Source of the DNA: a virus
Taxonomy: Duplodnaviria > Caudoviricetes
Reading direction: 5' to 3' (one strand)
DNA length: 64,000 nt
Virus record (IMG/VR): IMGVR_UViG_3300027749_000069
Coordinates: 30,383 to 94,382 of that record
Part shown: in pieces, positions 3,151 through 63,457 of the stretch
Layout: every line of letters starts with the position of its first letter
How positions within the stretch are numbered: position 1 is the first letter of the stretch
Notes under the pieces: generated by a model
The model's database searches: none
What the model saw: only the letters and a program-made list of their open reading frames with translations
What the model was told of the DNA's origin: nothing
Translations under genes and position numbers: made by a program

Positions 3151-3930
3151 TTAAACTGTTTCATAATTTACATCTCGTTTATTCTTAAAAAAGAATTCCT
3201 TCTTGGCTGTTTCCAACCAAAATTTAACCTCATTTTCTGACAGTTTTTGTTTTTCATTATTCTTGTAACTCCAAAATAATGAATCTTCTCTTAAATTAAC
3301 ATGTTGATAACCGATTTTAGGAACTGTCATGACCCTAATACCATTGTGTGTTAATCTTAAAAAGAATTCGTATGCGAATGTTAATTTAATATTTTCTTTT
3401 AAACTACCATTATCCTTAATAACTTGGGTTCTATATAAACCACCACTTATTTGATAATTTTGAAAATCTAATAATACTTCGTTGTCGATGAACCCTTGCA
3501 TTTCAGTAAACCCATAAGCCCAAGCTGATTCATTTGTAAAACTTACAAATTTACCATCAGTATTAATGTCTCTTACAATAGGTAAAAACACATCAACATC
3601 TTTATATATTTTCATATAGTCGTTGGTTGATTTTAACCAAATAGGTTTAAATTCGTCATCAACTTCTAAAATAGTAAACCATTCAGTATCACATTTATCA
3701 ATACCTAAATTGATTTGTGAACAAAAATCTGTTTCACCTTTATTAACTACAATTTCAATTTCTAATTTTTCAGAAAGATTCTCTAAATCTTTTTTTAATT
3801 TACTTGGACAAACAATTGATACTTTAACATCATTGTGAAAGTCCTCAATAGATGATAGTGCGTTATCTAACATAACTTTATAATCGTCATCTAATTTATG
3901 TAAAGGTAAAATTACTGTTATATTTTTCAT
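3151..3930 (-). CDS. Glycosyltransferase, GT-A fold (family 2-like)
   Basis: N-terminal ITVILP..., INLGIDKCDTEWFTILEVDD (DxDD-like), YEFFLRL...PKIGYQH, all typical of GT2. Confidence 0.85.
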   Translation of the reverse strand: MKNITVILPLHKLDDDYKVMLDNALSSIEDFHNDVKVSIVCPSKLKKDLENLSEKLEIEIVVNKGETDFCSQINLGIDKCDTEWFTILEVDDEFKPIWLKSTNDYMKIYKDVDVFLPIVRDINTDGKFVSFTNESAWAYGFTEMQGFIDNEVLLDFQNYQISGGLYRTQVIKDNGSLKENIKLTFAYEFFLRLTHNGIRVMTVPKIGYQHVNLREDSLFWSYKNNEKQKLSENEVKFWLETAKKEFFFKNKRDVNYETV

Positions 3931-3931
3931 A

Positions 3932-4996
3932 TTATACTGTTTCTTCTTGTTTTAATTTGTCTATTGCTGATTGAATGGATTCATTTCTTTTATTTATTAA
4001 TGAACCAAATATTGATAGGATATTATTTTTAGTTATTTCAGTTTCATAAGGTAGTAATGTTTCTTTCATTTTGTCCTTAACTTCATCAGTTAATTCAATA
4101 CCTTCAATCCAAGCTAATATATATGTACCTAATAATTCAACTAATTTATTACCATCATATGTCCACATACCATTTTCACTTAACCAATCTGGTTCGGTGT
4201 CAGGGATTTTACCAACTACAGGTACACCACATTTCATAGATTCTAATGGAAATGTACCAAAAGTACTTTCATCGTCAACCCATAATGATACCATACATTC
4301 TTTTAGATTTGTTGAAAACTCATCATAAGACATTTGAACCATATCTCTAAATGTAATCCAACGCAATTGTGGAAACTTTAAATAAAATTCAGAAATTAAT
4401 TTTCTATGTACGGCTCTATCTCTACAACTAATTGCCACATATGGTTTTAATGGCAATTCAATTGGTTTAAAGTTATCTCCAATAATTGGTGGAATAATAT
4501 AAACTAAACTTTCAGGAAAATAATCTAAAATATATCTCTTCGCACTTTCAGTTGTTGTAATAACTTTATCAAATCCATATTCACTATACCTACTTCCAAT
4601 TGGTAATGTTTCGAACATATACTCTTTTTGTTGTACCAATAAAACTTTAACACATCTAATGTTTGATAATTGTTGTAATGTGTTTCCATAATACTCGGGA
4701 ACAACTAAAACATCTTCAATTTTAATTTCTACTTTATCTTCTTTGATTGATACAACTTCTAATTCACTATATTCTTCACTTAACCAAGAACTAACCCCAA
4801 CATAGTTTTTATCCTCAACTAAAATTTTGGATTTTCTACCGTTTTTATTAAGTGTTAATGCTAAATCGTAAATGTATTTTACCGATGCTCTGGCATTTGT
4901 TTTAGTATCATATGTTAAAAAATATATAACACTTTCATTGTTATTTAATCTACCTAAGGCAGATTCTAATTTTTCTATGTTTTCGTTATTACTCAT
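3932..4996 (-). CDS. Glycosyltransferase, GT-B fold (family 1/4-like)
   Basis: ESTFGTFPLESMKCGVPVVG matches the E-x-F-G-x-x-x-x-E-A-M-x-x-G-x-P-V nucleotide-sugar-binding motif. Confidence 0.85.
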   Translation of the reverse strand: MSNNENIEKLESALGRLNNNESVIYFLTYDTKTNARASVKYIYDLALTLNKNGRKSKILVEDKNYVGVSSWLSEEYSELEVVSIKEDKVEIKIEDVLVVPEYYGNTLQQLSNIRCVKVLLVQQKEYMFETLPIGSRYSEYGFDKVITTTESAKRYILDYFPESLVYIIPPIIGDNFKPIELPLKPYVAISCRDRAVHRKLISEFYLKFPQLRWITFRDMVQMSYDEFSTNLKECMVSLWVDDESTFGTFPLESMKCGVPVVGKIPDTEPDWLSENGMWTYDGNKLVELLGTYILAWIEGIELTDEVKDKMKETLLPYETEITKNNILSIFGSLINKRNESIQSAIDKLKQEETV

Positions 4997-7837: not shown

Positions 7838-9058
7838 TTATTTTATTATTGATTTAAAAAATTCTACTCTATCTTGACAAACTTTTTTTAATGAGTATTT
7901 GTCTTTTACTGTTTCATATAAACGATTACCTAAATCTTCAATCATATTTGGATTTTCAACTAAACGTTTCATATGTTTTGCCCAATCCTTATGATTTCTT
8001 CTTGGGTTAACTAATAATGCGTTACCGTTATCATTAAACTTACCGTCGTTAATTGCTGAAATTAAATCTAATGTATATGGGTCAGTTTCACTTGCAATAA
8101 TTGCTTTCTTATGAAATCCCGCTTCAATAACTTTTAATTGTGATTTGTTAGCATTAAATTGAGATTCAACTAACGGCGCTAAAGATACATCAAATGTGTT
8201 ATAATTTGATGCATATGTTTTAATATCCTTTGTCCATCTTCTTCTATACGGTTCGTTCACATCATCATACGGTGTATCAACAAATGTATTTAAAAAACTT
8301 TTATATTGAGGACTTAATACTTTATAATCTTCAGTAAAGAATTTTTCATACTTATACCAAACAGTTTCCGTTGGTTGAATTGAACGTTGTCTTTGTTTTC
8401 CTTCTTGGTCAATTTCAGTCACAGTACCTCTTAAGTCAAACCCACATAACACAAATTGTACTTTATCTTTGAAACTGTTATGTGTTGAAGAAATACCATT
8501 TGACATTAATTCAATATCAGATAAATGTGAAGAACCTCCTAACCAACCAAATCTAATTTTATCTGATTTAATTGGTTCTCTTTTAAATTGAGGTTCATCT
8601 TCATTAACCGCATTTGGAAAAATTTCAATATTTTTTACATTTAATCTATCTTTAATTGTTTTTGCAAAAATTGAAGTTGTTGTTGTGACATAATCCACCA
8701 CTTTTAACATCTCCATTTTCATTTCACCAATTTTAGAATTTTTAATCTGATGATACATTGGGTGTCTTTGATCTACAAACCATAAATCATCAATATCCAT
8801 AATAACTTTAATTCCTTTTGATTGTAACCACTTAATCCTATTAATATTATCGTCGTGATTTGTTTGGTGTATGAAAGTGTGGAATACGACGATATCGTAA
8901 TTTAAAAAATACTCATCATTATTATCTGCATTATATGAGATATCCACGTGAACATCATCCGAATGATTATCACCAATGAATTGGTAAGGGTCCATCATTC
9001 TAAACTTACCTACACCATGTTTATCCGAGGGGATTGCTAAAATTCTAATTTTTGACAT
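7838..9058 (-). CDS. Glycosyltransferase, GT-B fold
   Basis: GVGKFRMMDP, MDIDDLW, FPNAV, FGWLGGSSHLSD, DVSLAPL...FNANKSQLKVIEAG, a common large-phage GT family pattern. Confidence 0.85.
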   Translation of the reverse strand: MSKIRILAIPSDKHGVGKFRMMDPYQFIGDNHSDDVHVDISYNADNNDEYFLNYDIVVFHTFIHQTNHDDNINRIKWLQSKGIKVIMDIDDLWFVDQRHPMYHQIKNSKIGEMKMEMLKVVDYVTTTTSIFAKTIKDRLNVKNIEIFPNAVNEDEPQFKREPIKSDKIRFGWLGGSSHLSDIELMSNGISSTHNSFKDKVQFVLCGFDLRGTVTEIDQEGKQRQRSIQPTETVWYKYEKFFTEDYKVLSPQYKSFLNTFVDTPYDDVNEPYRRRWTKDIKTYASNYNTFDVSLAPLVESQFNANKSQLKVIEAGFHKKAIIASETDPYTLDLISAINDGKFNDNGNALLVNPRRNHKDWAKHMKRLVENPNMIEDLGNRLYETVKDKYSLKKVCQDRVEFFKSIIK

Positions 9059-12130: not shown

Positions 12131-12171
12131 TTTATATAAATATCAAATGTTATGAAAGATATTTATATAAA
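12131..12171. promoter_or_regulatory. Divergent pair of late promoters forming a perfect 14-bp inverted repeat
   Basis: TTTATATAAATATC (12131-12144) and GATATTTATATAAA (12158-12171) lie at the switch from minus- to plus-strand genes. Confidence 0.75.
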
Positions 12172-12172
12172 C

Positions 12173-13366
12173 ATGGCTAATCAGAATATTTTAAGATTTT
12201 ACGGTTCCAAACTCGATTTAAAGGTAGATTATTCCGAATTATATGACTTTGAACTATCAAAAGTTCAAATGGATTATAATGAAGAGGTCCTAAATTTTGA
12301 TAGAGAAATAACATATACAGGATTAACAATAGATTCTTCTTGTTTAACAGGACTAACTTCACCTTGGGAAGTAGAGGTAAATAAACCATACACTGGCGGT
12401 ACCTGTGATTTTACTGTTCGTAGAAGAACAGAGAAGGGTTGGACATTAGATTTGGTTTTTGATAGATTAGTGACTGGTACGACATTTTACTATTTAGGAA
12501 TTAAAGATGATTTAGCTAATGGGAATTACGCGGATAATAATTTAACATTTTCATTTACCAATAATAAAAAAATAAAATGGGAATCTTACCATTATTCGGG
12601 GTCGTGTAATCCAGATAGCGGGTACACGGAGTCATATTACACATTAACAGGTAATACTCCTGAATTGTGTGCGAATGGAATATATGACGATTTTAATATT
12701 ACAATCACATTTGATAGATACACATATCTTTATGATTGTGAGATTGAGAATGAGGGAGGATTTAATGATTTAATATTAGGTCCACATGCGGTTAGTTATA
12801 CTGATGAATTATGGGCACCGACGACTGGTGACACAGGTAGTTTCTTTTCTGGTTCATTTTTAGGACATTCAACACAAATCACCACAGGTTATACAATGGT
12901 TACTGGGTCGTTAAATTGGATTACTGGTGACACCAAATATAGTTATGTTGAGGAATTAAATAAGAAATGGGCGGGTGAGAAACAAAAGAGATTAGGAACA
13001 CTTAAAATTTATCATAACGGTAAAAGAATATATAAATTAGAAAACTTTGAAGAAATAATACCATCATTAAGAAAATCTACAAATTCAATTGTTCAGATTT
13101 TTGGTAGTAATGGTCTTAATGGTATATTGAAACAAGTTAAGTATTTTGAAGAACCATTAGATTTTGTTCATGTTAATCATCATTATTTAACATCAATTAA
13201 ACCAAATTATTCAATATATGGTTGTTCGGATGTTTTACCAAGCCCAACACCTACACCAACACCGAGTATAACTCCAACTAAAACACCGACACCAACTAAT
13301 ACTGTTACACCAACAGGAACACCTACAAACACTCCAACACCAACTAATACACCAACACCAACTTAA
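12173..13366 (+). CDS. Virion protein (ConA/LamG-like beta-rich) with a C-terminal Pro-Thr repeat tail
   Basis: Start moved to ATG 12173, downstream of the late box; GWTLDLVF, LKIYHNGK, LKQVKYFEEPL; ends in (PT)n. Confidence 0.55.
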   Translation: MANQNILRFYGSKLDLKVDYSELYDFELSKVQMDYNEEVLNFDREITYTGLTIDSSCLTGLTSPWEVEVNKPYTGGTCDFTVRRRTEKGWTLDLVFDRLVTGTTFYYLGIKDDLANGNYADNNLTFSFTNNKKIKWESYHYSGSCNPDSGYTESYYTLTGNTPELCANGIYDDFNITITFDRYTYLYDCEIENEGGFNDLILGPHAVSYTDELWAPTTGDTGSFFSGSFLGHSTQITTGYTMVTGSLNWITGDTKYSYVEELNKKWAGEKQKRLGTLKIYHNGKRIYKLENFEEIIPSLRKSTNSIVQIFGSNGLNGILKQVKYFEEPLDFVHVNHHYLTSIKPNYSIYGCSDVLPSPTPTPTPSITPTKTPTPTNTVTPTGTPTNTPTPTNTPTPT

Positions 13367-22435: not shown

Positions 22436-22436
22436 C

Positions 22437-24498: not shown

Positions 24499-26919
24499 AT
24501 GGCAAATTCAAACAGAGTATTCGTTTCTCCAGGTGTTTATACATCAGAGAAGGATCTAACATTCGTAGCACAAAGTATAGGTGTTACAACATTGGGATTA
24601 GTGGGAGAAACCTTAAAAGGTCCAGCTAATGAACCAATATTAATTTCAAATTTTGACGAATTTAAAACATATTTCGGAGGAACATCACCAGAAAAAGATG
24701 GTAATGGTAATCCAAAATATGAATTAGGTTATGTCGCAAAATCTTATTTACAAGAGTCAAATCAATTATTTGTAACAAGAGTATTAGGAAAGACAGGTTA
24801 TAAAGCAGGTAAAACATTCGGTATTAAAACATTAGGTACAGATGCGGATATTGTAGTGGTAGCATTAAGATCAAGAGGACATTATTCAGGAGAAACTTTA
24901 GTATTTGAAGTTACTGGAAATACATCCTTCGTTCTTAGTGGTGCAACATTAACAACTAATCCATTATCTGAATTTGATATTCATGTTACAGGTGCAACAG
25001 GTGGATCTAAAGTTTTTACTTGTAGTTTAGACGTTACATCACCAAAATATATAACTAAAGTTTTAGGAACAAGTCCATATGATAAAGATAGAAGTGATGT
25101 TCCTTTATATGTTCACGAAGTATATCCAAACTTAACTAAAAATTTATATCACCAAGGTATGATTAGTGGTTTAAGTTTTACTGAAGTATATAACGCTGAA
25201 AATGACAATTTTTCAAATCCTTGGGATACACCAATGTCTCCTACTGTAGTTTCTGAAGTCCGCGGTGGTAAAGTTGATGATTTATTTGATGTTATTACAA
25301 TTTCCGACGGTGACGCAGCAAATCAGGAAGTTAAAATTACAATTCAAAATATTAATATTGAAACAGGTGAATTTGATATATTAGTTAGAGATTTTAATGA
25401 TTCGGACGAAAATATGGTTGTTTTGGAAAAGTTCTCAAGATGTTCAATGAATCCAGATGTTGCGGGATATGTGGCAAGAAAAGTAGGAACATCAAATGGT
25501 GAATATACTTTGAATTCTAAATATATTATGTTAAGTATGGACTCTAACGCACCATCAAATGCATTCCCTGCAGGATTTAAAGGTTTTAAAAATGCAGTAT
25601 TATCAGGGTCAACAAAATTAGGTAATGTTCTTTATAAAACTAATTATTTTGATTCAGGTGAAACAATCTATGGTACAACAACAAGTAACGGTGACAAATA
25701 TAGAAAAACATCTTTAGGTTTATCTTCAGATAGTAATTTTAGTTTTGACGCAGATTTGTTCAAATATAAAGGTTCAGGAACATTGAATAGTACTGATGGA
25801 TTTCACTTATCAACTAATGCATCTTCAATTACAGGTACAACATATCAAACAACGGGTTATGATTTGGAAGGTCAAACAGACGCCGCTAACAACAAATTAA
25901 CCAATATTAATTACCGTAAATTTACATTTGCAGTATGTGGTGGTTTTGATGGTTGGGATATCTACAGACAAGTAAGAACATATGGTGATGGTTATATATT
26001 TGGAAAATTAATATATATTTCAGGTCTTACAACAAATGGTGGATTATTTGATACCGCATCAGGAAACTCTGATTATTACGCGTATTTAGAAGGTATTAAT
26101 ACGTATGCTAATCCTGAAGCTATAGATATTAACGTATTTGCAACTCCAGGTATTAACTTCTACGACCATAGTTCATTAACAACTCAAGCAATTGACATGA
26201 TTGAAACCGATAGAGCCGATTCAATTTATATCATCGGAGCCCCAAATGAAACTATTGCTTCTAATGTTATTGACGATTTAGACGGTATTGCGGTTGATTC
26301 TAACTACTCTGCAACATATTGGCCTTGGATTCAAGTAAGAGATACAGATAACGCAACTCAATTATTCATCCCACCAACAGGTGAGGTTGTTAAGAATATT
26401 GCTTTAACTGACAACGTATCTTATCCTTGGTTTGCAGTTGCGGGTTATAGTAGAGGTTTAGTAAACGCAATCAAAGCTCAAAAGAAACTTACTCTTGACG
26501 AAAGAGATGAGTTATATAAAGCAAGAATCAACCCAATTGCAACATTCTCTGATACAGGTACCATTATATGGGGTAACAAAACGTTACAAGTTAGAGAGTC
26601 AGCTTTAGATAGAATCAACGTAAGAAGATTATTATTAAGAGCAAGAAAATTGATATCTGCAGTCGCTGTAAGGTTATTATTTGAACAAAATGACGACCAA
26701 GTAAGACAAGAATTCTTAAGATTGGTAAACCCTATCTTGGAATCAATTAAGAAAGAAAGAGGTTTATATGACTTCCGTGTAAGTGTATCTAATGACCCAG
26801 AGGACATCGATGCTAACACATTAAGAGGTAAGATTTACATCAAACCAACTCGTTCTTTAGAATTCATTGATTTGGAATTTGTAATCACTCCAACAGGAGC
26901 TTCATTTGAAAATATCTAA
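24499..26919 (+). CDS. Contractile tail sheath protein (gp18-like)
   Basis: VSPGVYTSEKD, YSATYWPW, PWFAVAGYSRG, RINPI, IWGNKTLQ, DRINVRRL, IKPTRSLEFI. Confidence 0.95.
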   Translation: MANSNRVFVSPGVYTSEKDLTFVAQSIGVTTLGLVGETLKGPANEPILISNFDEFKTYFGGTSPEKDGNGNPKYELGYVAKSYLQESNQLFVTRVLGKTGYKAGKTFGIKTLGTDADIVVVALRSRGHYSGETLVFEVTGNTSFVLSGATLTTNPLSEFDIHVTGATGGSKVFTCSLDVTSPKYITKVLGTSPYDKDRSDVPLYVHEVYPNLTKNLYHQGMISGLSFTEVYNAENDNFSNPWDTPMSPTVVSEVRGGKVDDLFDVITISDGDAANQEVKITIQNINIETGEFDILVRDFNDSDENMVVLEKFSRCSMNPDVAGYVARKVGTSNGEYTLNSKYIMLSMDSNAPSNAFPAGFKGFKNAVLSGSTKLGNVLYKTNYFDSGETIYGTTTSNGDKYRKTSLGLSSDSNFSFDADLFKYKGSGTLNSTDGFHLSTNASSITGTTYQTTGYDLEGQTDAANNKLTNINYRKFTFAVCGGFDGWDIYRQVRTYGDGYIFGKLIYISGLTTNGGLFDTASGNSDYYAYLEGINTYANPEAIDINVFATPGINFYDHSSLTTQAIDMIETDRADSIYIIGAPNETIASNVIDDLDGIAVDSNYSATYWPWIQVRDTDNATQLFIPPTGEVVKNIALTDNVSYPWFAVAGYSRGLVNAIKAQKKLTLDERDELYKARINPIATFSDTGTIIWGNKTLQVRESALDRINVRRLLLRARKLISAVAVRLLFEQNDDQVRQEFLRLVNPILESIKKERGLYDFRVSVSNDPEDIDANTLRGKIYIKPTRSLEFIDLEFVITPTGASFENI

Positions 26920-28716: not shown

Positions 28717-28733
28717 TTAGTCTATTTATATGT

Positions 28734-35437: not shown

Positions 35438-35763
35438 TGAGTAGAAACTATTACAATAGATACCAAGATTATATTACAGACGGAAAGTTTAGAATTATTC
35501 CTGGAATTGAAATGCCTATAAAACCAACAGACAAATACTTACAATATAAAAAAGGAAAACACAGAATGGACATTTTATCACAAGAATATTATGGTTCACC
35601 TATGTTTGGGTGGTTAATATTATTAGCTAACCCATCGGTAGGTAGTATTGAATTTGAAATACCCGATAATTCTTATATAAGGGTACCATTTCCTTTACTA
35701 TCCTCTTTACAAGATTATAAAAACGGCGTAGAATTGTATAACTTATATTATGGCGAACAATAA
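35437..35763 (+). CDS. LysM-like baseplate wedge protein (gp53/GpX-like)
   Basis: RMDILSQEYYGSPMFGWLILLANP...IRVP. Confidence 0.8.
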   Translation: MSRNYYNRYQDYITDGKFRIIPGIEMPIKPTDKYLQYKKGKHRMDILSQEYYGSPMFGWLILLANPSVGSIEFEIPDNSYIRVPFPLLSSLQDYKNGVELYNLYYGEQ

Positions 35764-42804: not shown

Positions 42805-43485
42805 ATGCAAAATAGCCCTTCATCAAATTCCGCATTTCAGTCAACACGTGACAATTTAACGTATGTAAATAATGTTGTAACAGGTTGTACGTCTAGAGGT
42901 GAATATGTTGCATTTATTGATGCAAGATATATGGACCAAGATGTGGTCAATGACCTATTATTATTAGGTTATAGAGTTACAAATTTAACAAATGATATAG
43001 GTACATTTATTACCTATAAAATTGAATGGTCAAGTGCATATGTACCACCAACACCAACACCTACCCCAACACCAACTAACACACCTACCCCAAGTGTCAC
43101 ACCAACTAACACACCTACCCCAAGTGTCACACCAACTAACACACCAAGTGTCACACCAACCAATACAACAACACCGACTCGTACACCAACACCAACACCT
43201 TCCGCGGCAGTCATATCATCACACGCATACACATATGTTATTAGTGCAACTGATTTAGCCAATGCAACGGGAAACACAGACACAACACATAATAATGCTG
43301 TATTTGCAACCACTACTGATGATGGTTCAGGAACTCCAGCGTCAAGAAAGTTCACTTCTGCAGGTGCATATAATCATTGGATTTGTTCATTAACTAGTAT
43401 CACACCAACATTTGGTTACTATAAAAATAACGTATTAGTTACCACAGGATTAGTGAGTACACAAACTGATATTGGTGCTTGTTAA
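42805..43485 (+). CDS. Virion decoration/fibre-like protein: anchor domain, Pro-Thr stalk and distal domain
   Basis: About 55-aa (PT/PS/TN) repeat in the middle; N-terminal domain paralogous to the next gene; late box at 42777. Confidence 0.6.
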   Translation: MQNSPSSNSAFQSTRDNLTYVNNVVTGCTSRGEYVAFIDARYMDQDVVNDLLLLGYRVTNLTNDIGTFITYKIEWSSAYVPPTPTPTPTPTNTPTPSVTPTNTPTPSVTPTNTPSVTPTNTTTPTRTPTPTPSAAVISSHAYTYVISATDLANATGNTDTTHNNAVFATTTDDGSGTPASRKFTSAGAYNHWICSLTSITPTFGYYKNNVLVTTGLVSTQTDIGAC

Positions 43486-54161: not shown

Positions 54162-57100
54162 ATGATACAGAAGCATAGAATATCCACAAACATAGGGAAG
54201 GACCAAATAGTCAATCTTGAATTAAAACAAGATTTTGATTTTTTGGAAGTTCTATCGTTAAGATTCACTCAAAAGGATGTTTATTCATCTATGTGTTCTG
54301 ATTATGGAGTTGTATGTGGTAGAATTTCAGTAAACAATGGTTTAGGTATACCGAACGCCAGAGTATCAATATTTGTCCCACAATTACAAATTCATTCAAA
54401 TGACCCAGTTATATCTGCGTTATATCCCTACACTCAAATCGGGGATAAAGATACTAACAATTATAGATACAATTTATTACCATCAAGAAAACAACATGGT
54501 GGACATGAACCCACTGGTACATTCTTCGACCAAGAAGATATTTTAACAAGAGAAGAGGTTTTAGAAGTATATGAAACTTATTATTCGTATACGGTTAAAA
54601 CTAACAGTGCGGGTGATTTTATGATTTGGGGAGTACCATTAGGGCAACAAACAATTCACGTTGATGTGGACTTATCCGATATTGGTTGTTTCTCTTTAAG
54701 ACCTTACGATTTCATGAGACAAGGTGATGGTGTGGATAAATTTAAAAACAAATATTCATTTAAAGCTTCTGAAGATTTAAATACATTACCACAAATTGTT
54801 TCATTTGATAAAACGATTGAAGTTTATCCTTTTTGGGGTAATGATGATTTTTGTGAAATTGGTTTAACAAGAACAGATTTTGATTTATCGGAGAAAGGAA
54901 TTAATATAACACCAACAGCATTTATTATTGGTGGAATATATGGTGACAATGGTAAAAGTGCGGTTAATAAAAACTGTAGACCCAAAAAGAAAATGGGTAG
55001 AAAATGTGATTTGGTTGCTAAATCTGGAAAGATTGAAGCAATTAGGTTTACCCCAAAAAAAGATGTAAATCACAGACCAATATTAGAAGAGGTTAATTTA
55101 AATGAAGATATACCGGATGATGGAGGATTTGTATTTCCAATTGAAATGAATATGGACTATGTCTATACAAATGAATTTGGAGAAAATGAAATTACAAATG
55201 ATCCAAATAAAGGTGTACCAACTTCTGCATGTTATCGTTTTAGAATAAACATGAACGATAATGATTTAAGTAGAGCTAGAGTTAACGCCGATTACTTAAT
55301 TCCAAATATTAGAGAATATACAAGTCCATCAACCGAAGTTGATAAATCATATTATTTTGGAACACAATGGAGTGGATATCCAACAAATGCCGTTAGTACC
55401 AATTCTGACTATGGAATTTTATATAGCGAAGTGGGTGAATATTACCCAAGAGATTATTTTTATAGATTTAATTATAATAAAGTTTATACAGTTTCATCAT
55501 TTCATAGTAACTACCAAGTAGGTGGAAATTTTGCAAATATAAATGAATTACATCCATCGGAAGAAGAAGATTGTGGGGATAAATTAACACCACCATCAAA
55601 TTTTGGATTTAGAAATTATACGTTTACATTATTGATTGCTGATTTTTTATTAGTACTTGATTATGTTATTAAATTTTTAACATTACAATTTTTAAATTTT
55701 GCAACATTTATTTTTAGTTGGTTTGCTGAGGCCGTAATAAGTGTTGGAGGATCAGGATATCGTTTTTTAAGAGAAAATGTAACAGAATTTCAAATCAACA
55801 ATCAAACTGCATTAAGTTTAATAAATTATCCTGAATGTGTTGAATGTTCAGATGAAAATAACATTATTGGTGGAGGTCAAACAGGATTTACGATTGATTA
55901 TTTTAATGGTGGATGCAGTTTATATGATACAGTTTATGACGAATCATTAGCAACTGGTTATTTTATTCTAAAGACAGGTAATACAAATACATTTACTGGT
56001 TGTGGTAGTAACGCAGCATTTTTACCGGCAAATTATCATAGACAATATGTTACGACATTAGTAGGACTAACGGGATATACTTTATTGTCTACTGCAATAT
56101 ATGGTGGACATAGACAAGGTGTTCCATTAACTGATTATAAAAATTCATACAATAATGGTGGTTACCCAACCGACATTAGAAATTTTAGTTGTGGGCGTTA
56201 CACTTACAATGGTGGTTTTGTAACTCAAAGTGCAAGAAGTGAATTTTATAATGGGGTTTTTTATATCGTTCCAGGGACTCAAACACCTATTAGATTAACT
56301 AAAGTTATTAACGAATATTATAGAAGAAAAAGAGTAGGAAAAATGTTCTGCGGTGGAATTGTTAATTACGCATTTTTAGATAATTGGTTATCAGGTTCAT
56401 TATATTTTACACAATTTAAAGCTAAAAGAATAATTACTGCAATTAATCGTAATTCTGAAAACTTGGCGAACTATTGTAGAGATATTGCACGTCTTGTAGT
56501 TGGACAAAAAAAACTATATTATCGTTCGGCACCAACTCTTTATGGAACAGATTTTTATAGTGACAACATAAACAAACCAACAACGTTTGTTGACTTAGGT
56601 CCAAGAGATGAGTTTATTAAAGAAATTTGTATTGACCCAAAATTAGACCCAAACTGTTCAGTATCACGTTCAATTGGTGCAACATCCTATCAAGATTTGG
56701 GTGAATTATTAGGATTAGCAATTAACTATAGAATGGATATTGCAAATACAAGTGGTAACTTAGATATGTTTTTTCAAAACGATGGATTTTCTAGTGGAGT
56801 AGGAATATCAAATGTTTTAGATGGTGATATCTTACAACTGTTATCAATAAATAATGAAAGTGGAATTGAAGAGTTTGATTTACAAAATCCAAAATATCTT
56901 GGATACGATTTTAATGTTTTAGACCCTGAAGAACATCCACAAGTTTTTAAAAATGGCAACGCAAATTATGGTCCACTACCTCTTACATTTGAATTATCAG
57001 ATAGTGGATCATTAGTTAGGTCTTGTCTAAATGAACCTGGTAGATTAACTGAGTCATCACAAAAGGTACCGTTCTATTTATGGGATAAAAAAGGTACAGG

Positions 57101-57635
57101 ATTTGGACCATACAATAGTGATAAAAATAACCAATCGTGGGATTATAGTGAAGTTCAATCCCAACCACTACAAGGTATGACATATGGTTATAATTTAACA
57201 GGTGACCCATCGGATCCATATCTCTTATTACCGATGACATATACATTTAGTGGTTTAACTATAACTGGAAATGTCGAAATATCGGGAACAACTGTAGAGT
57301 TTGATGTAGTATCAGATGTTGACGACCATACAAATTACAATACACAATATCCTGGATTTACTTATTTATTTGCAGATTCAGAAATAAATCCAACATCAGG
57401 TACGTTATATACGAGATATGGTAATGCAGGAATAGATGGAATAGTAGGTTGGCAATCTACCACTTGGACTAACACAACATTTACAATTAAAAGAACACAA
57501 GATTATTATAGTGGAAATAAACAAATACTTTCAACCCCATTCCAATTTTACTTTGGATTAAATGCGGGTAAAACAGGTATGGATAAATTTATTGACCTAT
57601 TTGGTCCAAAGGGAGCGTTCCCGTCAGCTGAATAA
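54162..57635 (+). CDS. Large baseplate/tail structural protein
   Basis: Follows the gp6-like gene; N-terminal YGVVCGRI...GIPNARVSIF...TNSAGDFMIWGVP (carboxypeptidase-regulatory-like beta domain); late box at 54148. Confidence 0.6.
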   Translation: MIQKHRISTNIGKDQIVNLELKQDFDFLEVLSLRFTQKDVYSSMCSDYGVVCGRISVNNGLGIPNARVSIFVPQLQIHSNDPVISALYPYTQIGDKDTNNYRYNLLPSRKQHGGHEPTGTFFDQEDILTREEVLEVYETYYSYTVKTNSAGDFMIWGVPLGQQTIHVDVDLSDIGCFSLRPYDFMRQGDGVDKFKNKYSFKASEDLNTLPQIVSFDKTIEVYPFWGNDDFCEIGLTRTDFDLSEKGINITPTAFIIGGIYGDNGKSAVNKNCRPKKKMGRKCDLVAKSGKIEAIRFTPKKDVNHRPILEEVNLNEDIPDDGGFVFPIEMNMDYVYTNEFGENEITNDPNKGVPTSACYRFRINMNDNDLSRARVNADYLIPNIREYTSPSTEVDKSYYFGTQWSGYPTNAVSTNSDYGILYSEVGEYYPRDYFYRFNYNKVYTVSSFHSNYQVGGNFANINELHPSEEEDCGDKLTPPSNFGFRNYTFTLLIADFLLVLDYVIKFLTLQFLNFATFIFSWFAEAVISVGGSGYRFLRENVTEFQINNQTALSLINYPECVECSDENNIIGGGQTGFTIDYFNGGCSLYDTVYDESLATGYFILKTGNTNTFTGCGSNAAFLPANYHRQYVTTLVGLTGYTLLSTAIYGGHRQGVPLTDYKNSYNNGGYPTDIRNFSCGRYTYNGGFVTQSARSEFYNGVFYIVPGTQTPIRLTKVINEYYRRKRVGKMFCGGIVNYAFLDNWLSGSLYFTQFKAKRIITAINRNSENLANYCRDIARLVVGQKKLYYRSAPTLYGTDFYSDNINKPTTFVDLGPRDEFIKEICIDPKLDPNCSVSRSIGATSYQDLGELLGLAINYRMDIANTSGNLDMFFQNDGFSSGVGISNVLDGDILQLLSINNESGIEEFDLQNPKYLGYDFNVLDPEEHPQVFKNGNANYGPLPLTFELSDSGSLVRSCLNEPGRLTESSQKVPFYLWDKKGTGFGPYNSDKNNQSWDYSEVQSQPLQGMTYGYNLTGDPSDPYLLLPMTYTFSGLTITGNVEISGTTVEFDVVSDVDDHTNYNTQYPGFTYLFADSEINPTSGTLYTRYGNAGIDGIVGWQSTTWTNTTFTIKRTQDYYSGNKQILSTPFQFYFGLNAGKTGMDKFIDLFGPKGAFPSAE

Positions 57636-59419
57636 TGGAAAAGAAACAAATCATATTACCAAGTAAAAAATTCGCAAAGGCGGATGACCAAGAATTAGAA
57701 TTAAAACTCAATCTTGATAATAGTGATACACTAATGCGAATAGGTGAAAGGGATATAATATTAGATATTGACGAACAATATTATAAAGAACGTAATGAAA
57801 GTATAAATTATAAAATTTATGGAAAATTAAAAATGGTTTTTCGTAATTTATATTCTGGATCAACACCCTATTCTTATTTGAAACAAAGATTATATTTAAC
57901 AGGTGATGGTAGTAACGTACAAGATAGTACTGTTTTTGATGGTTATTTACCATATGATGAATTCGCATTTTTAAGAAGAGACGTTTATAGGGAGGTTAAT
58001 TTACCGGTAACAAGAAATACATTAGGGACTTTTACACCAAATATAGTAAAATCAGGATCAACCTCACATACAACTGTAACACCAATATCTGCCCCGTATC
58101 AAAACTGGAATTTATATTTAAGTTATGTTTATAGTGGTGATAGTGAATTTAATATGGTTTATACGTTAACAGGTGCAACAGGTAGTACGAAAGTTAGTTT
58201 TACTGCTAAAGATGGTATACCATTTAGGGTTGTGGATTATACCACGTATTATGAATTAACATCTCCAGTTGAACATGGAATGAGTGAAGGTGAACACGTT
58301 GTTTTATCAGGTAGTACATTAACAGGATTAACATTAACAGGTAGAACCTTTTATATTAATTCAGTTGGTAATGAAACGTTTGATTCTAAAAAATATGTCA
58401 TTAATATTATAAAGTCACAAATAAAAACGGGAACAACATTTAGTACAATTATGTTAGGTAAAAGGTGTAAAGATTTTACTAATATAGTTGCATCAACTTC
58501 CCAATATTATGTTCACAAACATAAAACATTAACTAATGAAGGTGGTTATATAATGGATTCACTTGGATTTGAAAGTCCAGTGTTTGAAGATGAAAAGAAA
58601 TTATTATTTGAAAATAGTGCAAATATTAATGATGTCGTGGTTGAAAGAAATAGAATGGAATCCGTTTTGTACGATTTTAAGGAACCATTAAAATTAAGTG
58701 GATTAACAAATAATTTAGGATTTAGCCCAACAAATATTTTTGTTACTGCAATTTTTAGAAATGGGAATGGATATTTTAATTATCCACCAAAGGTTGGATA
58801 TAAATTTAATTTTCACGATACATGGATTGACGAACATTTTAGTGGAATCACGTCAAATGAAAATGGTTTAAGTGGAGGAACATTCACAAGAGATTCGTTT
58901 ACATTTACGAGTGGAAATACAATTACTGGTGATACCGTTGCAATATTGAATGGTGCCTTTGTGGAATATAACCCAAAAGAAATGACAGAAAGAATCGTTA
59001 GTGAAGCATTCCATAAAATCACAAATCCTGTAACTATATTTAATCATGGACAAACATCAGGCTCAACGTACGCGTCATCAACAAATTTAGAAGGATTAAT
59101 ATACCAACCACATTATAGAATTAAATTAAGAGAATTATCACCATATACTGAAACTGCAAATACTAATGATATTTTCAACTTACCTGAAAATGCAAAGTAT
59201 GACCCATATGATAAAGTTTGGAGATGGAGAGATATATATGATCATGGTTATGTAGATTCCGATGGATTTGGAACTGATTTTCCTTTTATGAATGGAAATC
59301 ATTATGTTAAAGCGGACATTAATTTCTATTTAAGAAATGAAAGATATTACAAAAATAAATCAAATAGAATAATGAGTTTCATGGATGTAAATAATAAAAA
59401 TAATAATTTAGATTGTTAA
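57635..59419 (+). CDS. Baseplate/tail structural protein
   Basis: TAATG coupling; about 14 [ST]GxT motifs; WRWRDIYDHGY. Confidence 0.6.
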   Translation: MEKKQIILPSKKFAKADDQELELKLNLDNSDTLMRIGERDIILDIDEQYYKERNESINYKIYGKLKMVFRNLYSGSTPYSYLKQRLYLTGDGSNVQDSTVFDGYLPYDEFAFLRRDVYREVNLPVTRNTLGTFTPNIVKSGSTSHTTVTPISAPYQNWNLYLSYVYSGDSEFNMVYTLTGATGSTKVSFTAKDGIPFRVVDYTTYYELTSPVEHGMSEGEHVVLSGSTLTGLTLTGRTFYINSVGNETFDSKKYVINIIKSQIKTGTTFSTIMLGKRCKDFTNIVASTSQYYVHKHKTLTNEGGYIMDSLGFESPVFEDEKKLLFENSANINDVVVERNRMESVLYDFKEPLKLSGLTNNLGFSPTNIFVTAIFRNGNGYFNYPPKVGYKFNFHDTWIDEHFSGITSNENGLSGGTFTRDSFTFTSGNTITGDTVAILNGAFVEYNPKEMTERIVSEAFHKITNPVTIFNHGQTSGSTYASSTNLEGLIYQPHYRIKLRELSPYTETANTNDIFNLPENAKYDPYDKVWRWRDIYDHGYVDSDGFGTDFPFMNGNHYVKADINFYLRNERYYKNKSNRIMSFMDVNNKNNNLDC

Positions 59420-59420: not shown

Positions 59421-60869
59421 ATGAAAATATTAAGAAAAGATACTGATTTAAATATATTATTAAATACTGAAACTGATTTTCAAACAAATCTCGGTTGGGA
59501 AGAGAATTTAAAAGAATTTGAAACCGAAATATTAAGTGATATTATTAACCCAATTGAAAATTATGAAACGGTTAGATATATACATAAACCATATTCTTCT
59601 AGTGGAGTTACACAAACTGATATTTGGTTTTATTTTTATTTTTTAAATACTGGCGGAATATATGTACAAGATTATTATACCGGTGACGATGAAAAAAGTA
59701 TAACATATACTGAAAACGAACAAATGTTAAAACAATCAACCCAAAGTTTTTTTAGATTGGAGTTTTTTAAAACACCAGGAACCGTTTCGGGAACCACATT
59801 AACATGTGAACCACCAACAAGACAAAATAGAAAACTAATATTTGTAAAAAATTTATCATTACCGTTAGGTGAGAAAATGTTTTATAATCCACTTAATGGT
59901 TATATACATTTACCTGTTTTTAGAGGGTCAAATTATAGTAATAAAGAAAATATGTATTTCTTTTGGTTCCAAGACGAAAGTGTTTTAACTGAAACAAATT
60001 TAAGTGGTACAACGACATTAGATAAGTATACATTTGTTAATACAGGAACAGCAAAAACAACATCATTTCTTGATAGTAATAATTCACTAACTAACATTAA
60101 TATTCCAACTGGTACTACGGTATTTTCAGGGTGGACAAATCAAATGTTTAATATGCCAGAAGTTACAGTTACATACGATAGAAATTTTTACCCTGGAACA
60201 AACACCTTCTTTATGACGGCAAAGTTTTATAACGCAAAAGAAGGTACAATTTTAGATTTCACAAATGATAGTTATAGTACGGGTCACACTATTACTGAAC
60301 AAAATGATATGTATTATCAAGTTGATATTAATAAAACAGATTATTCGTATCAAGTTTATTTTTATAATGGTGAGGTAAAATGTGAAGAAGTTGGTTTAAC
60401 AAACAAACCAATAATGTTTTTTGAAAGAGGAGGTGGAGTGGCACCAAATAATATATTATACCACATATGTTCAAATGTAACACCGACACCAACACCAACT
60501 GTTACACCAACATCGGTTACACCAACACCAACCCCAACTATTACACCAACACCAACCTCTTCATCCGCTGTAGGGTCAACTCCAACCCCAACACCAACTA
60601 ATACAACAACTCCTACACCGACACCAACAAACGCGTATGAACTTTATAGTGCAGATAGATATGAGTGTGATACTCCGTCTGGACCTTGTACTTATGTTGA
60701 AACATTAGATATTGCTAATCCAACTGTACTTAATATAGGTAAGTTCTATTTAGATAGTATTAACGGATATATATTTAATATTATAGGTGGTCCTATTAGC
60801 GGTCCGTATTTATATACAAGTATGAGTGGTGTTGGTACTAATAACTGTAGTTCATTATGTTCAATATAA
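59421..60869 (+). CDS. Structural protein with a Pro-Thr stalk and Cys-containing distal domain
   Basis: About 50-aa (TP)n segment near the C-terminus. Confidence 0.6.
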   Translation: MKILRKDTDLNILLNTETDFQTNLGWEENLKEFETEILSDIINPIENYETVRYIHKPYSSSGVTQTDIWFYFYFLNTGGIYVQDYYTGDDEKSITYTENEQMLKQSTQSFFRLEFFKTPGTVSGTTLTCEPPTRQNRKLIFVKNLSLPLGEKMFYNPLNGYIHLPVFRGSNYSNKENMYFFWFQDESVLTETNLSGTTTLDKYTFVNTGTAKTTSFLDSNNSLTNINIPTGTTVFSGWTNQMFNMPEVTVTYDRNFYPGTNTFFMTAKFYNAKEGTILDFTNDSYSTGHTITEQNDMYYQVDINKTDYSYQVYFYNGEVKCEEVGLTNKPIMFFERGGGVAPNNILYHICSNVTPTPTPTVTPTSVTPTPTPTITPTPTSSSAVGSTPTPTPTNTTTPTPTPTNAYELYSADRYECDTPSGPCTYVETLDIANPTVLNIGKFYLDSINGYIFNIIGGPISGPYLYTSMSGVGTNNCSSLCSI

Positions 60870-60875: not shown

Positions 60876-61715
60876 ATGAAAAGAATAAACCATACCATTA
60901 GAAGAAAAAAAATACCCGAAGTGAAATTAGTTTCATTAACTGCACATACGTGGTATGATTCTAATGATAACCCAACTTCATGGACAGGTAAAACTGAATT
61001 TTTAGTTACAGGTTTTACACCCGACACAGGTTATTTAATTAAAAACGTAACAGGAGGAACCGTAACAAGTGGATATTATAAATGGAACACACCAAGTGGA
61101 AATACGTGGAATCTTATTACAGGAAATACAACTCAAATAAATCAACAAATTTATGACGATTTTCAATTGCCATTATTTTTGGAAGCAACGGCAGATGAAA
61201 TGGGAGATATGATTGATTTTGATAAAAAAATTGAACATAATAAAATTAGTGCAAATTTTACATACAATAGTGTTTGTTCTGAAACTGGTAGTACAATAAC
61301 AATTAACAACACAACAACATATCAATTAGTTAATATAATTCAAGCTAATAGCACAAATGCGGATGGGTCAACAAATGTATCGGGTAGTGTGAGATTAACA
61401 ACAGAATCACCCAAACAAATTACAGATGAATCGCCACAATATATAATAATAGATGGACAAGGTTCATCGACATCAGTTTCATCATTTACGGTACATTGGG
61501 GAGATGGAACAACATCACCAATCGGAATTAATGATACCATAACACAATCATTTGCCACTGCAGAAGAAAGAACAATAAGAATCGTTTTTGATTCCCCATA
61601 TCTAACAAATCAAGTAGTTAAAGTAGTTAATTGTAACAATACTTTTTTAAGAATTAATACAGAAGATATGGAAAATATCCAAGATGAAAATAATAATTAC
61701 ATAAATGCCGGATAG
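60876..61715 (+). CDS. Structural protein with a PKD-like domain
   Basis: FTVHWGDGTT PKD signature; C-terminal RINTEDMENIQDENNNYI. Confidence 0.6.
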   Translation: MKRINHTIRRKKIPEVKLVSLTAHTWYDSNDNPTSWTGKTEFLVTGFTPDTGYLIKNVTGGTVTSGYYKWNTPSGNTWNLITGNTTQINQQIYDDFQLPLFLEATADEMGDMIDFDKKIEHNKISANFTYNSVCSETGSTITINNTTTYQLVNIIQANSTNADGSTNVSGSVRLTTESPKQITDESPQYIIIDGQGSSTSVSSFTVHWGDGTTSPIGINDTITQSFATAEERTIRIVFDSPYLTNQVVKVVNCNNTFLRINTEDMENIQDENNNYINAG

Positions 61716-61753
61716 AACCACAAACTAATATATTTATTAGTTAATCAAGTGCC

Positions 61754-63457
61754 ATGGCAGAAATAAAAATTAGTGAATTAACAGAATTAACAGGTGATCC
61801 AGCAGGTTCATGGTTAATTATTGATAATAACAACCAATCAGCAACATATAAAATCCAAAGAGAAGATTTTTTAGTTGGATATGGAGGTGGTTCTAATACT
61901 AGTGGTAGTTCTGGTAGTTCTGGTGTTTCAGGAACAAATGGTTCTTCAGGAACAAGTGGTAATGGAACATCAGGTTCGTCTGGAACTTCAGGTGTAGACG
62001 GTGCACCTGGTACGTCAGGTTCTAACGGTTCAAGTGGAACTTCAGGTTCTAACGGTACTTCTGGAACAAGTGGTTCTTCAGGTACATCAGGTTCTAATGG
62101 TTCATCAGGAACATCGGGGTCTAACGGTTCAAGTGGTACTTCAGGTTCAAACGGAACGGATGGTACTTCAGGTTCTAATGGTACAGATGGTACTTCAGGT
62201 TCAAACGGAACGGATGGTACTTCAGGTTCTAATGGTACAGATGGTACTTCAGGTTCTAATGGTACAGATGGTACTTCAGGTTCTAATGGTACTGATGGAA
62301 GTTCGGGAAGTAATGGTACAGATGGTTCTTCAGGTACATCAGGTTCTAATGGTACAGATGGTTCTTCAGGTACATCAGGTTCTAATGGTACAGATGGTAC
62401 CAGTGGAAGTGATGGTTCTTCAGGTACATCAGGTTCTAATGGTACAGATGGTTCTTCAGGTACATCAGGTTCAAACGGAACTGATGGAACTTCAGGTTCA
62501 AACGGAACTGATGGAACTTCAGGTTCAAACGGAACTGATGGAACTTCAGGTTCAAACGGTTCTTCAGGTAGTTCAGGAAGTAATGGAACAAATGGTTCAT
62601 CAGGAAGTAATGGTACAGATGGTACATCAGGTTCAAATGGAACAAGTGGTTCAAATGGTACTGACGGTACTTCAGGTTCAAACGGTTCATCTGGTAGTTC
62701 AGGTTCCAACGGAACCAACGGTTCATCAGGTTCTAACGGTACAAACGGTTCATCAGGAACAAGTGGTTTACTTACATTGACAGGAACAAAACATAATGGA
62801 GTAATAACTCTAAGCGGTTCAGTACCAAATGGTATTGTAGAAGATAATTTATCTTTTGATGGTAGTACTTTAAGTGTTACAGGTAGTGGTATTTTTAGTG
62901 GAAATTTAAAAGTCAATGGTAATCTAACGGCGGAACAATACATTGTTAGTTCGTCTTACATATATGTGACACAATCATTTATGAGTGGATCAACCATGTT
63001 TGGTAATTCTTCAGATGATACTCATCAATTTACAGGTTCAGTTCATATAAATAATAATTTAGTATTTGATTCTGTTAATACATCACCAACAATAACATCA
63101 AATGTTTCAGGATTCACAAAAACATTAACAAACCAAGGAAATACATCTGTAATTTATTCATTACCAAAGTTAAATACAAATTTAATTCATTTTGATTATT
63201 GGGTTGAAAACGTTAATTCACCATATAATGGTAGAGGTGGTCAATTAACAATACCATATAGTTCTAATGGTGAGAAAGTTGGTATTGTTGATAATTATAG
63301 TAGCGATGTAAATTCAACAACCGCATTTTATTTTGATAGCGTGGTTAATGGTGCAAATATAGATTTAAAATTAGGTTTGTACGATTTTACACAAGGTACA
63401 GGATATACTGAAACATATAAAATAATATTAAACGCAAAAATAACAAAATCAATATAA
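61754..63457 (+). CDS. Tail fibre-like protein with a long Gly-X-Y (GTS/GSN/GTD/GSS) repeat
   Basis: KISELT N-terminus, about 290 aa of G-X-Y triplets, then SGSTMFGNSSDDTHQFTGSV. Confidence 0.75.
   Translation: MAEIKISELTELTGDPAGSWLIIDNNNQSATYKIQREDFLVGYGGGSNTSGSSGSSGVSGTNGSSGTSGNGTSGSSGTSGVDGAPGTSGSNGSSGTSGSNGTSGTSGSSGTSGSNGSSGTSGSNGSSGTSGSNGTDGTSGSNGTDGTSGSNGTDGTSGSNGTDGTSGSNGTDGTSGSNGTDGSSGSNGTDGSSGTSGSNGTDGSSGTSGSNGTDGTSGSDGSSGTSGSNGTDGSSGTSGSNGTDGTSGSNGTDGTSGSNGTDGTSGSNGSSGSSGSNGTNGSSGSNGTDGTSGSNGTSGSNGTDGTSGSNGSSGSSGSNGTNGSSGSNGTNGSSGTSGLLTLTGTKHNGVITLSGSVPNGIVEDNLSFDGSTLSVTGSGIFSGNLKVNGNLTAEQYIVSSSYIYVTQSFMSGSTMFGNSSDDTHQFTGSVHINNNLVFDSVNTSPTITSNVSGFTKTLTNQGNTSVIYSLPKLNTNLIHFDYWVENVNSPYNGRGGQLTIPYSSNGEKVGIVDNYSSDVNSTTAFYFDSVVNGANIDLKLGLYDFTQGTGYTETYKIILNAKITKSI
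61890..62770 (+). repeat. Coding tandem repeat (9-nt triplet units, 27- and 36-nt higher-order units)
   Basis: Units such as GGTACTTCAGGTTCTAATGGTACAGAT and GGAACTTCAGGTTCAAACGGAACTGAT occur in runs. Confidence 0.9.

Follow-up and report, generated by a model that had tools for sequence, protein, structure and literature searches.

The 64,000-nucleotide window analysed here (bases 30383-94382 of the 94,382-base viral contig IMGVR_UViG_3300027749_000069, hereafter G000) derives from a phage known from this metagenomic contig alone, and encodes a group of virion proteins rich in the four-residue motif [ST]GxT (serine or threonine, glycine, any residue, threonine) together with three confirmed or probable glycosyltransferase (GT) genes. 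The window has a G+C content of ~30%, and CheckV puts the completeness of the contig at 30%. The window holds T4-like virion genes (sheath, gp19-like tube, T4 baseplate protein and gp6-like wedge) and T4-like replication genes (gp32, PolB, an SNF2 helicase, and RecA- and DnaB-like proteins). A first-pass annotation had noticed the motif in outward-facing virion proteins and proposed it as the sequon of a phage-encoded glycosylation system. The motif-bearing proteins of the window are listed below, with the numbers expected from 1000 shuffles of each protein.

57635..59419, plus strand: 594-residue baseplate-distal protein, the most motif-dense (14 motifs against 0.66 expected)
12152..13366, plus strand: 404-residue orphan protein (9 motifs against 0.89 expected)
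24499..26919, plus strand: tail sheath (8 motifs against 1.06 expected, all within residues 130-508)
30683..35437, plus strand: 1584-residue orphan protein of the virion module (8 motifs against 1.72 expected)
35750..41473, plus strand: 1907-residue orphan protein of the virion module (6 motifs against 1.43 expected)
54162..57635, plus strand: 1157-residue protein, product of the next gene after the gp6-like wedge (5 motifs against 1.16 expected; 11 in the ortholog of the relative G001, introduced below)
59421..60869, plus strand: 482-residue protein with a short Pro/Thr run at residue 395 (6 motifs against 1.14 expected)
60876..61715, plus strand: 279-residue protein (6 motifs against 0.59 expected, at residues 37-137, some 8 residues apart)
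30..2060, minus strand: 676-residue orphan protein, the last in a minus-strand run with two GT genes (3 motifs against 0.37 expected)
42805..43485, plus strand: Thr-rich protein of 226 residues (21.7% Thr; Pro/Thr run of 11 residues at residue 81; 2 motifs)

A recount of all proteins named in the first-pass annotation reproduced its motif numbers to within one. The 12152 protein has the nine copies reported, but its open reading frame (ORF) begins at 12152 and not at 12173, and encodes 404 residues; the 35750 protein has six copies where about five had been noted, and the five copies of the 54162 protein were confirmed. Copies were absent, as had been claimed, from the tube (27244), the 639-residue protein at the tape-measure position (28734), the gp6-like wedge (52275), the SNF2 helicase (20117) and the 49356 protein, while PolB has one copy and the RecA-like (45456) and DnaB-like (47952) proteins have only the TGKT of their Walker A motif. 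For the 756-residue protein at 49356-51626 the absence of motifs stands but the label of ribonucleotide reductase does not, no Pfam match being found at E<=1e-4. The Pro/Thr stalks that had been described exist as runs, but short ones of 11 and 9 residues.

The sheath copies are confined to its variable part, as had been noted, and the conserved C-terminal part is free of them. In most other phages (immuto and HTVC008M among them) the sheath aligned to residues ~500-806 only; two sheaths aligned over 99% of the length, and the best full-length match was 31.5% identical. The capsid protein, which lies outside the window at G000:C1:23025-24749, has the motif as well, so that its carriers are the sheath (variable part), proteins encoded downstream of the gp6-like wedge, large orphan proteins and the capsid protein (variable loops).

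Across the 49 ORFs of the window the motif occurs 81 times against 24.5 expected when each protein is shuffled. In a scan of all 8000 a-b-x-c patterns over 83 ORFs of the contig, from which two collagen-like ORFs were dropped, TGxT ranked second (48 copies against 11.2 expected; z 11.0) and SGxT fourth (40 against 10.0; z 9.5). Only Pro/Thr-linker patterns scored as high, and the shapes a-x-b-c and a-b-c gave nothing outstanding besides Pro/Thr linkers. Shuffles inside windows of 10, 20, 30 or 60 residues yielded 22-26 copies, and never more than 39 in 300 shuffles, where the contig has 88, so the excess survives the composition-shuffled control suggested in the first-pass annotation, and composition, whether overall or local, was rejected as its cause. 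Permuted orders of the motif residues gave 19-35 copies, with the exception of TG.[ST] (57 copies), which overlaps the motif. The codons at the three fixed positions follow general genome usage (ACA/ACT/ACG/ACC, GGA/GGT and six Ser codons), and because they are so diverse the signal is one of amino-acid rather than nucleotide sequence, which led to the rejection of a DNA-level word. Repeats of one homologous domain were rejected as well, since the motif-rich proteins have no mutual BLAST similarity, in agreement with the earlier description of a motif scattered through unrelated outward-facing virion proteins. The C-terminal 45 residues of the 12152 protein match phrog_15511 and phrog_38031, which are likewise matched by the 59421 protein.

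Several further proteins of the window have unusual compositions or arrangements. Two collagen-like proteins lie at the contig end (61754-63457 and 63470-64000, the latter running off the end; Pfam Collagen E 4e-41) and contain 22% Gly and 23% Ser, with the motif unenriched in both (3 against 6.1 expected and 2 against 2.0). Between the motif-rich 12152 protein and PolB lies a 366-residue Gly-rich protein (13784-14884) with the C-terminal domain of Lcl, the Legionella collagen-like protein (Pfam E 1e-11); this gene is not RecA, the RecA-like gene being that at 45456-46436. The adjacent genes 22365-23714 and 23725-24228 are paralogs without family assignment, the second matching residues 268-449 of the first over its whole length at 41% identity (E 4e-34).

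Specificity, turnover and range of the motif

The enrichment is specific at each fixed position. Position 0 is enriched for S and T only (4-5 fold), with N slightly up, and position 1 for G only; position 3 is enriched for T only, S, V and I occurring there at expectation (contig and G001). Partial forms are not enriched, GxT without a preceding S or T being found 114 times against 114.7 expected and [ST]Gx followed by a residue other than T 221 times against 250.4, from which it follows that the motif is an all-or-none unit. The preceding position (-1) is hydrophobic in 62% of motifs against a background of 34%, and S, T and N are favoured at x. A logo of 1641 distinct instances from relatives, which are phylogenetically non-independent, shows Y, L, W, I and F at about 2-fold at -1, where D, E, R and G are depleted, a depletion of acidic and basic residues at both -2 and -1, the near exclusion of Pro at x (0.1-fold), a hydrophobic residue at +4, and K and R at 0.1-fold at +5. 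At conserved sites position 0 is sometimes replaced by N or D.

The 594-residue protein gives some structural context for these preferences. Its AlphaFold2 (AF2) model (predicted local distance difference test score, pLDDT, 79; predicted template modelling score 0.80) is nearly all beta, with 213 strand and 57 helix residues, and the 14 motif sites fall in well-ordered regions (block pLDDT 71-92). The sites occupy mixed contexts (strand end into loop, within a loop, strand start), and a classical two-residue hairpin is found at one of the 14 (DSSP, on the AF2 model of this one protein). The alternation of hydrophobic residues (-1 and +4) with hydroxyl residues (0 and +3) suggests that the two hydroxyl residues would face outward. 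The protein has no Pfam or PHROG match, and its fold has no Foldseek match at E<=0.001; VIA-align recovered only a small beta-barrel at residues 192-283 (Z 7.6).

Relatives are plentiful in public viral contigs, which hold 159 relatives of the 594-residue protein, 490 of the GT encoded at 7838-9058 and >590 of the capsid protein. Searches for close relatives among isolated phages returned none, whether by megablast of 24.9 kb, with the 594-residue protein or with the GT encoded at 3151-3930. For the relative G001 the complete genome is available (310,542 bases, terminal repeats, 446 ORFs), and in it the motif occurs 135 times against 43.3 expected. This excess lies in the virion block at 40-130 kb, where TGxT (58 against 10.6) and SGxT (45 against 9.1) rank first and second of all patterns; the other 367 ORFs have 10 TGxT against 11.8 expected and 22 SGxT against 11.9. 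Of the baseplate and fibre loci in relatives, 77 of 80 have at least a 2-fold excess, the minimum of 0.91 coming from a two-ORF locus. G006, a complete 362-kb genome of a sister clade whose capsid protein is 64% identical, has 99 TGxT against 40.4 and 88 SGxT against 34.4, and seven of its proteins hold 90 motifs against 15.7.

Within this lineage the positions of the motif change while its density is kept. The 60 distinct orthologs of the 594-residue protein (56-96% identical to the window copy) have 6-17 motifs each. Counting only the alignment columns in which at least three sequences have it, the motif occupies 30; a few sites are near-fixed (57 of 60 and 54 of 60) and the majority patchy. 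Conservation of the motif residues against other residues of the same kind in this protein is 0.64 against 0.62 for S/T, 0.66 against 0.80 for G and 0.64 against 0.56 for T. Ten orthologous pairs of G000 and G001 have 65 and 49 motifs, 19 of them at the same position. Even the slowly evolving capsid protein behaves in this way: its 63 distinct orthologs (74-90% identity) have 0-6 copies each, with a mean of 2.97 against 0.7-0.8 in local shuffles, at residues ~116-310, at ~408 and, in one of the 63, at 563 of 574, making up 30 alignment columns. The retention of density while positions turn over indicates selection on the unit itself, and the turnover argues both against inherited old structural turns and against the exchange of ready-made modules.

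The motif also characterises a second lineage, represented by the 735-kb megaphage LR756501. This genome has 15 BLAST-detectable proteins in common with the contig and, apart from the conserved sheath core, no BLAST counterpart of the contig's motif-rich proteins. Its 962 ORFs, with 15 collagen-like ones dropped, contain 120 TGxT against 44.7 expected (z 11.3) and 105 SGxT against 40.3 (z 10.2), with the same position specificity save a slight excess of V at position 3, and 12 proteins concentrate 130 motifs against 15.7 expected. PHROG searches with ten of the motif-rich proteins returned one 'minor tail protein' domain and nothing else informative. G009, a 330-kb contig with 24% G+C on the megaphage side, shows the Thr-specific motif too, again in proteins without homology to the carriers in G000: it has 29 TGxT against 14.2 and 52 SGxT against 16.2, six proteins holding 46 motifs against 4.3. 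The motif is real, specific, surface-restricted and selected as a unit in two unrelated jumbo-phage lineages. LR756501 also encodes very large collagen-like ORFs, and the patterns EE.W, PY.E, DP.G and YG.E each have at least 100 copies above expectation there, which points to a large repeated-domain family unrelated to the motif studied here.

Four other phages have no such excess. The counts are 11 TGxT against 10.3 and 14 SGxT against 9.7 in T4 (bases 70-169 kb, 131 ORFs), 18 against 13.2 and 18 against 11.4 in phi92 (229 ORFs), 13 against 17.7 and 27 against 22.8 in Microcystis phage Mel-JY01 (234 ORFs), and 27 against 22.0 and 49 against 31.2 in the 484-kb LR756508, where no protein among 687 ORFs is significant. 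A general property of phage fibres was rejected on these grounds.

Glycosyltransferase genes and a putative promoter element

The window contains two adjacent GT genes and a third in a separate run, all on the minus strand.

3151..3930, minus strand: GT-A of the GT2 family, hereafter GT2 (Pfam PF00535 Glycos_transf_2, 27.5 bits against a cut-off of 23.3)
3932..4996, minus strand: probable second GT-B, beside GT2 (Atlas feature search to Glycos_transf_1 clusters, 0.98-0.99)
7838..9058, minus strand: GT4-like GT-B and candidate initiating enzyme (PHROG 7162 at 3e-41; fold)

The first-pass annotation had named all three as GTs, and the Pfam match of GT2 and the PHROG match and fold of 7838-9058 bear this out, while 3932-4996 is a lead based on features only, with no Pfam, PHROG or NCBIfam match. 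Its ortholog is syntenic with GT2 in G001 and G006. The AF2 model of 7838-9058 (pLDDT 82) has a two-Rossmann GT-B fold with a C-terminal domain of GT1/GT4 type, and Foldseek matched it to GlgM (E 1.8e-12), MshA, PimA, BshA and PglA at probability 1.00, the E values to GT4 enzymes being 1e-12 to 1e-10. T4 alpha-glucosyltransferase (1y8z) came at rank 43 (E 2.8e-9), behind many GT4 enzymes, and the Pfam family Glyco_trans_1_4 scored 20 bits, under its cut-off of 27. A sequence search of the PDB with the GTs gave no meaningful match, 7838-9058 having none at E<=1. More than 7900 homologs of this GT-B occur in public data, and its nearest Atlas clusters are 96-100% viral (98-100% in all but one); the enzyme belongs to a clade seen only in viruses. 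Detection of the three GTs in other genomes was as follows, as amino-acid identity to the window copies.

G001: GT2 63%, GT 3932-4996 69%, GT-B 7838-9058 61%
G002-G005: GT2 64-98%, GT-B 7838-9058 66-95%
G006: GT2 39%, GT 3932-4996 35%, GT-B 7838-9058 50%
LR756501 and G009: GT2 and GT 3932-4996 not detected, GT-B 7838-9058 35%
phi92: GT2 and GT 3932-4996 not detected, two GT-B homologs at 24-27% beside a GT-A
Mel-JY01, immuto, HTVC008M and LR756508: none of the three found

The neighbourhood of the GT-B in LR756501 contains RtcB and a thymidylate synthase, and no further GT was recognised there.

The element TATTTAT(A), TATTTATA, is found, in gene orientation, in the 80 nt before 27 of the 85 ORFs, 13-fold more often than the 2.0 expected, and looks like a promoter element of the phage's own. 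Virion genes, among them those of sheath and tube, have it upstream (e.g. at 24454-24461, 27199-27206, 28723-28730, 30663-30670 and 42777-42784), as do the first gene of both minus-strand runs that contain GTs (11346-12119 and 5933-6664) and also non-structural genes; this placement is consistent with co-expression of the GT runs and the virion genes. The T4 late promoter TATAAATA was rejected, its 21 matches being no enrichment over the 18.6 expected. Next to the adjacent pair of GT genes, on their downstream side, 2452-3150 has a weak sigma-70 region 2 or SigK-like match (Pfam E 0.001 and NCBIfam E 1.5e-4, none reaching a cut-off) and is possibly the phage's own sigma factor.

Glycosylation of DNA bases is an alternative activity for these GTs. 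It takes place on hydroxymethylated pyrimidines or, as arabinosylation, on 5-hydroxycytosine (PMC13326640), and both routes start from a thymidylate-synthase homolog. The thymidylate synthases swap among relatives, with ThyX in G001 (G001:C1:139036-139647) and ThyA-family genes in G002 (G002:C1:102906-103946, matching in two pieces) and G003 (G003:C1:1907-3055), and the GTs are retained in G001-G003 despite this swap. In the complete genome of G001, ThyX is present, the thymidylate-synthase family PF00303 was not matched, and all three GTs are kept. DNA base glycosylation of the T4 type is therefore unlikely, given that the pathway starts from a thymidylate-synthase homolog. The family Tet_JBP (PF12851) was found in none of five genomes, in a search without a positive control.

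Two other genes with a possible bearing on DNA are common to the motif-bearing lineages. A protein of the adenylosuccinate-synthetase family (Pfam E 3e-47), at 372 residues shorter than the 416 positions of the model, is encoded in both, at G001:C1:141022-142140 (L099:1022-2140) and at 345347-346546 of LR756501. The family includes phage PurZ, which serves to make 2-aminoadenine DNA, so a non-canonical base may be present. A Dam-type N6-adenine methyltransferase (G001:C1:121761-122603; LR756501 382290-383105) is, at 52% identity, the most similar full-length protein common to G001 and LR756501, and in G001 it adjoins two motif-rich genes.

Possible functions of the motif

The motif may be a sequon for O-glycosylation, or a similar modification, by this GT set, a reading adopted here tentatively and at somewhat less than an even chance. 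An ortholog of the GT-B 7838-9058 is present in all five motif-bearing genomes (G000, G001, G006, G009 and LR756501) and in none of the four whole control genomes (LR756508, Mel-JY01, immuto and HTVC008M; T4 is outside this set), and it is the sole GT common to the five. The first-pass annotation had suggested testing whether motif and GT repertoire are swapped together; the GT-B accompanies the motif in this way, while GT2 and 3932-4996 were undetected in LR756501 and G009. The link between motif and GT is only a correlation so far.

As a sequon, hydrophobic-[S/T]-G-x-T would serve as a recognition unit placed in loops and strand ends, on the solvent-facing side of folded, outward virion proteins, and displayed on the variable loops of the capsid, the outer part of the sheath, the baseplate periphery and the fibres. 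A soluble phage GT would read the motif in the cytoplasm, the likeliest reader being the GT-B 7838-9058, and would attach a sugar to one of the two hydroxyl residues, which in the G000 clade GT2 and the GT 3932-4996 may extend. The outcome would be a glycan coat with attachment sites that are quickly gained and lost. We infer the modification of the motif, the glycan nature of that modification, the enzyme responsible and the residue modified alike. The broader proposal, that a virus-only GT4-like clade reads a cytoplasmic sequon and glycan-coats capsid, sheath, baseplate and fibres in at least two unrelated lineages, remodelling the coat by sequon gain and loss, is held more tentatively still.

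Several observations weigh against the sequon. The five genomes with the GT-B amount to two independent lineages, and many other genes fit their distribution as the GT-B does: G001 has 47 of its 446 proteins in common with LR756501, and 29 of these are absent from a set of four controls. Most of the 29 are unassigned in function; ten were run through Pfam and nine were identifiable (a Dam-type methylase twice, a ClpB-like AAA+ protein, an AAA ATPase, an exonuclease, a nucleotidyltransferase, a PurA/adenylosuccinate-synthetase-like protein, a poly(A)-polymerase-like protein and DUF5662). The GTs are no closer to known protein O-glycosyltransferases than to lipid, sugar or DNA GTs. Phages related to phi92 have a 27%-identical GT-B within a GT-A/GT-B/GT-B trio and lack the motif, which makes phi92 a partial counter-example. 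The original proposal is partly supported: the motif is a discrete, lineage-specific and selected unit on outward-facing virion proteins. Weaker signals occur in two phages in which the GT-B is absent, Flavobacterium phage immuto (57 TGxT against 27.5) and Pelagibacter phage HTVC008M (47 SGxT against 20.3). Finally, the logo is also compatible with an exposed strand-turn-strand unit that bears no modification.

That last point leads to the possible, though somewhat doubtful, explanation that the motif is an unmodified structural unit, a favoured uncharged strand-end turn in fast-evolving beta domains, while the GTs act elsewhere, on DNA, the host envelope or a small molecule. It would be a turn of the ST or type II'-like Gly kind, with a cross-strand pair of hydroxyl residues at its flanks. 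The hydrophobic residues at -1 and +4, the Gly, the lack of Pro and the preference for S, T and N at x, and the charge-poor surroundings all suit such a turn, as does the replacement of position 0 by N or D at some conserved sites, which also happens in Asx/ST-turns. The sheath segment SGET-LVFEV-TGNT-SFVL-SGAT resembles successive turns 8-9 residues apart, and phi92 agrees with this explanation in having related GTs and no motif. Thr is the only uncharged polar residue of high beta propensity, which could explain the Thr-specificity on a charge-poor surface.

The weak [ST]G-x-[T/I/V/F] excess of immuto and HTVC008M counts in the same direction. In both phages, however, position 3 is as often I, V or F as T and position -1 is not hydrophobic (29 of 88 and 30 of 85), and the HTVC008M copies stem from an internal repeat, so that the signal is read as an ordinary turn-then-strand, distinct from the Thr-specific unit. 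Equal enrichment in phages without these GTs had been named as evidence against a sequon; it is absent from Mel-JY01 and LR756508, and that of immuto and HTVC008M is weaker and not Thr-specific. A favourable turn should be at least mildly enriched among beta-rich proteins of other phages, but T4, Mel-JY01 and LR756508 show none of this, and partial forms of the motif stand at expectation. The motif residues are conserved no better than average and the sites flicker even among capsid proteins of 74-90% identity, which is unlike a structurally required element. In the single protein modelled, the rarity of the classical hairpin also counts somewhat against a turn of this kind, which in addition gives no reason for the convergence of two unrelated lineages.

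Another recognition role is unlikely, though it would share much of the same evidence. The hydroxyl pair would then do the binding, and the partner might be an assembly factor, a chaperone or a different modifying enzyme, or else a ligand (a host surface polysaccharide or a metal, for instance). The all-or-none character, surface location and turnover at kept density fit this role equally well, and the 29 co-distributed proteins of G001 offer alternative partners; but those identified among the common proteins include no protein-modifying enzyme besides the GT-B, and no ligand-binding fold was recognised, the 594-residue protein yielding only its small beta-barrel. Chance, composition or a DNA-level artefact might be suspected from carriers that are rich in S, T and G and from motifs that are in part adjacent or overlapping, but is refuted by the shuffles, the permuted orders, the varied codons, the absent BLAST similarity and the replication in related loci and four further genomes, and is highly improbable.

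If the motif is a sequon, glycosylated virions would be predictable from sequence in very abundant uncultured jumbo phages, a function would be suggested for a large virus-only GT clade, and a short tag and enzyme pair would be at hand for glycoengineering. If it is unmodified, it is still an unusually sharp short unit under lineage-specific selection on virus surfaces, and needs an explanation of its own. A literature search returned no report of [ST]GxT as a glycosylation sequon. To our knowledge, glycosylation of virions by phage enzymes is documented for few phages, and we know of no sequon there.

Comparison with known systems

The general O-glycosylation of Bacteroidota acts in the periplasm on the sequon D-[S/T]-[A/I/L/V/M/T], and resembles the present case in having a short sequon on surface proteins. 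Unlike there, this host-type sequon, D[ST][AILVMT], is not enriched here, with 20 copies against 27.0 expected in the motif-rich set of G000 and a depletion to 13 against 31.6 in that of G001. N-x-S/T occurs 91 times against 100.9 and 100 times against 106.3 in the same sets. The depletion of D[ST][AILVMT] in G001 (10 ORFs) is about 3 standard deviations, and fits a general exclusion of charged residues near S and T on motif-bearing surfaces.

Type II' and ST-turn hairpins place Gly at the first loop position and S, T or N at the second, with flanking hydroxyls and hydrophobic residues beyond; they are ubiquitous and tolerate many flanks. The motif, unlike these, is all-or-none, Thr-specific, lineage-restricted and, in the model, mostly outside classical hairpins.

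Among phages, the T4 system of alpha- and beta-glucosyltransferases, which act on hydroxymethylcytosine, likewise involves GT-B enzymes in a T4-like phage, the match being one of fold only; unlike T4, G001 has ThyX, no ThyA-family gene and all three GTs. The phi92-like phages (Stephanstirmvirinae) also encode a GT-A and two GT-Bs side by side, in genes 163-165, and the phi92 GT-Bs are the closest homologs of 7838-9058 among isolated phages (24-27% identity); phi92 differs from G000 in having no [ST]GxT enrichment. The 'moraphages', a group of large aquatic phages, have DnaK/DnaJ heat-shock genes in all members and four core GT families, and the passages of PMC12619734 on this group mention virion glycosylation as a mere possibility. 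Membership of this group was rejected for the phage studied here, as DnaK (PF00012) was matched in none of G000-G003, although it was matched in LR756501; the absence of HSP70 makes the G000 lineage distinct from the moraphages.

A further parallel is the virion glycosylation of mycobacteriophages (Freeman et al. 2023, as summarised in PMC12619734), in which the capsid and tail tube subunits bear glycans on C-terminal extensions. The candidate sites described here, known from sequence alone, differ in forming a four-residue unit within folded domains (model pLDDT 71-92) and not in C-terminal extensions, and in lying on the sheath, baseplate, fibres and capsid loops, with no motif in the tube. 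Both systems have in common several soluble GTs that a lytic phage encodes outside the structural module, with virion proteins as the proposed acceptors.

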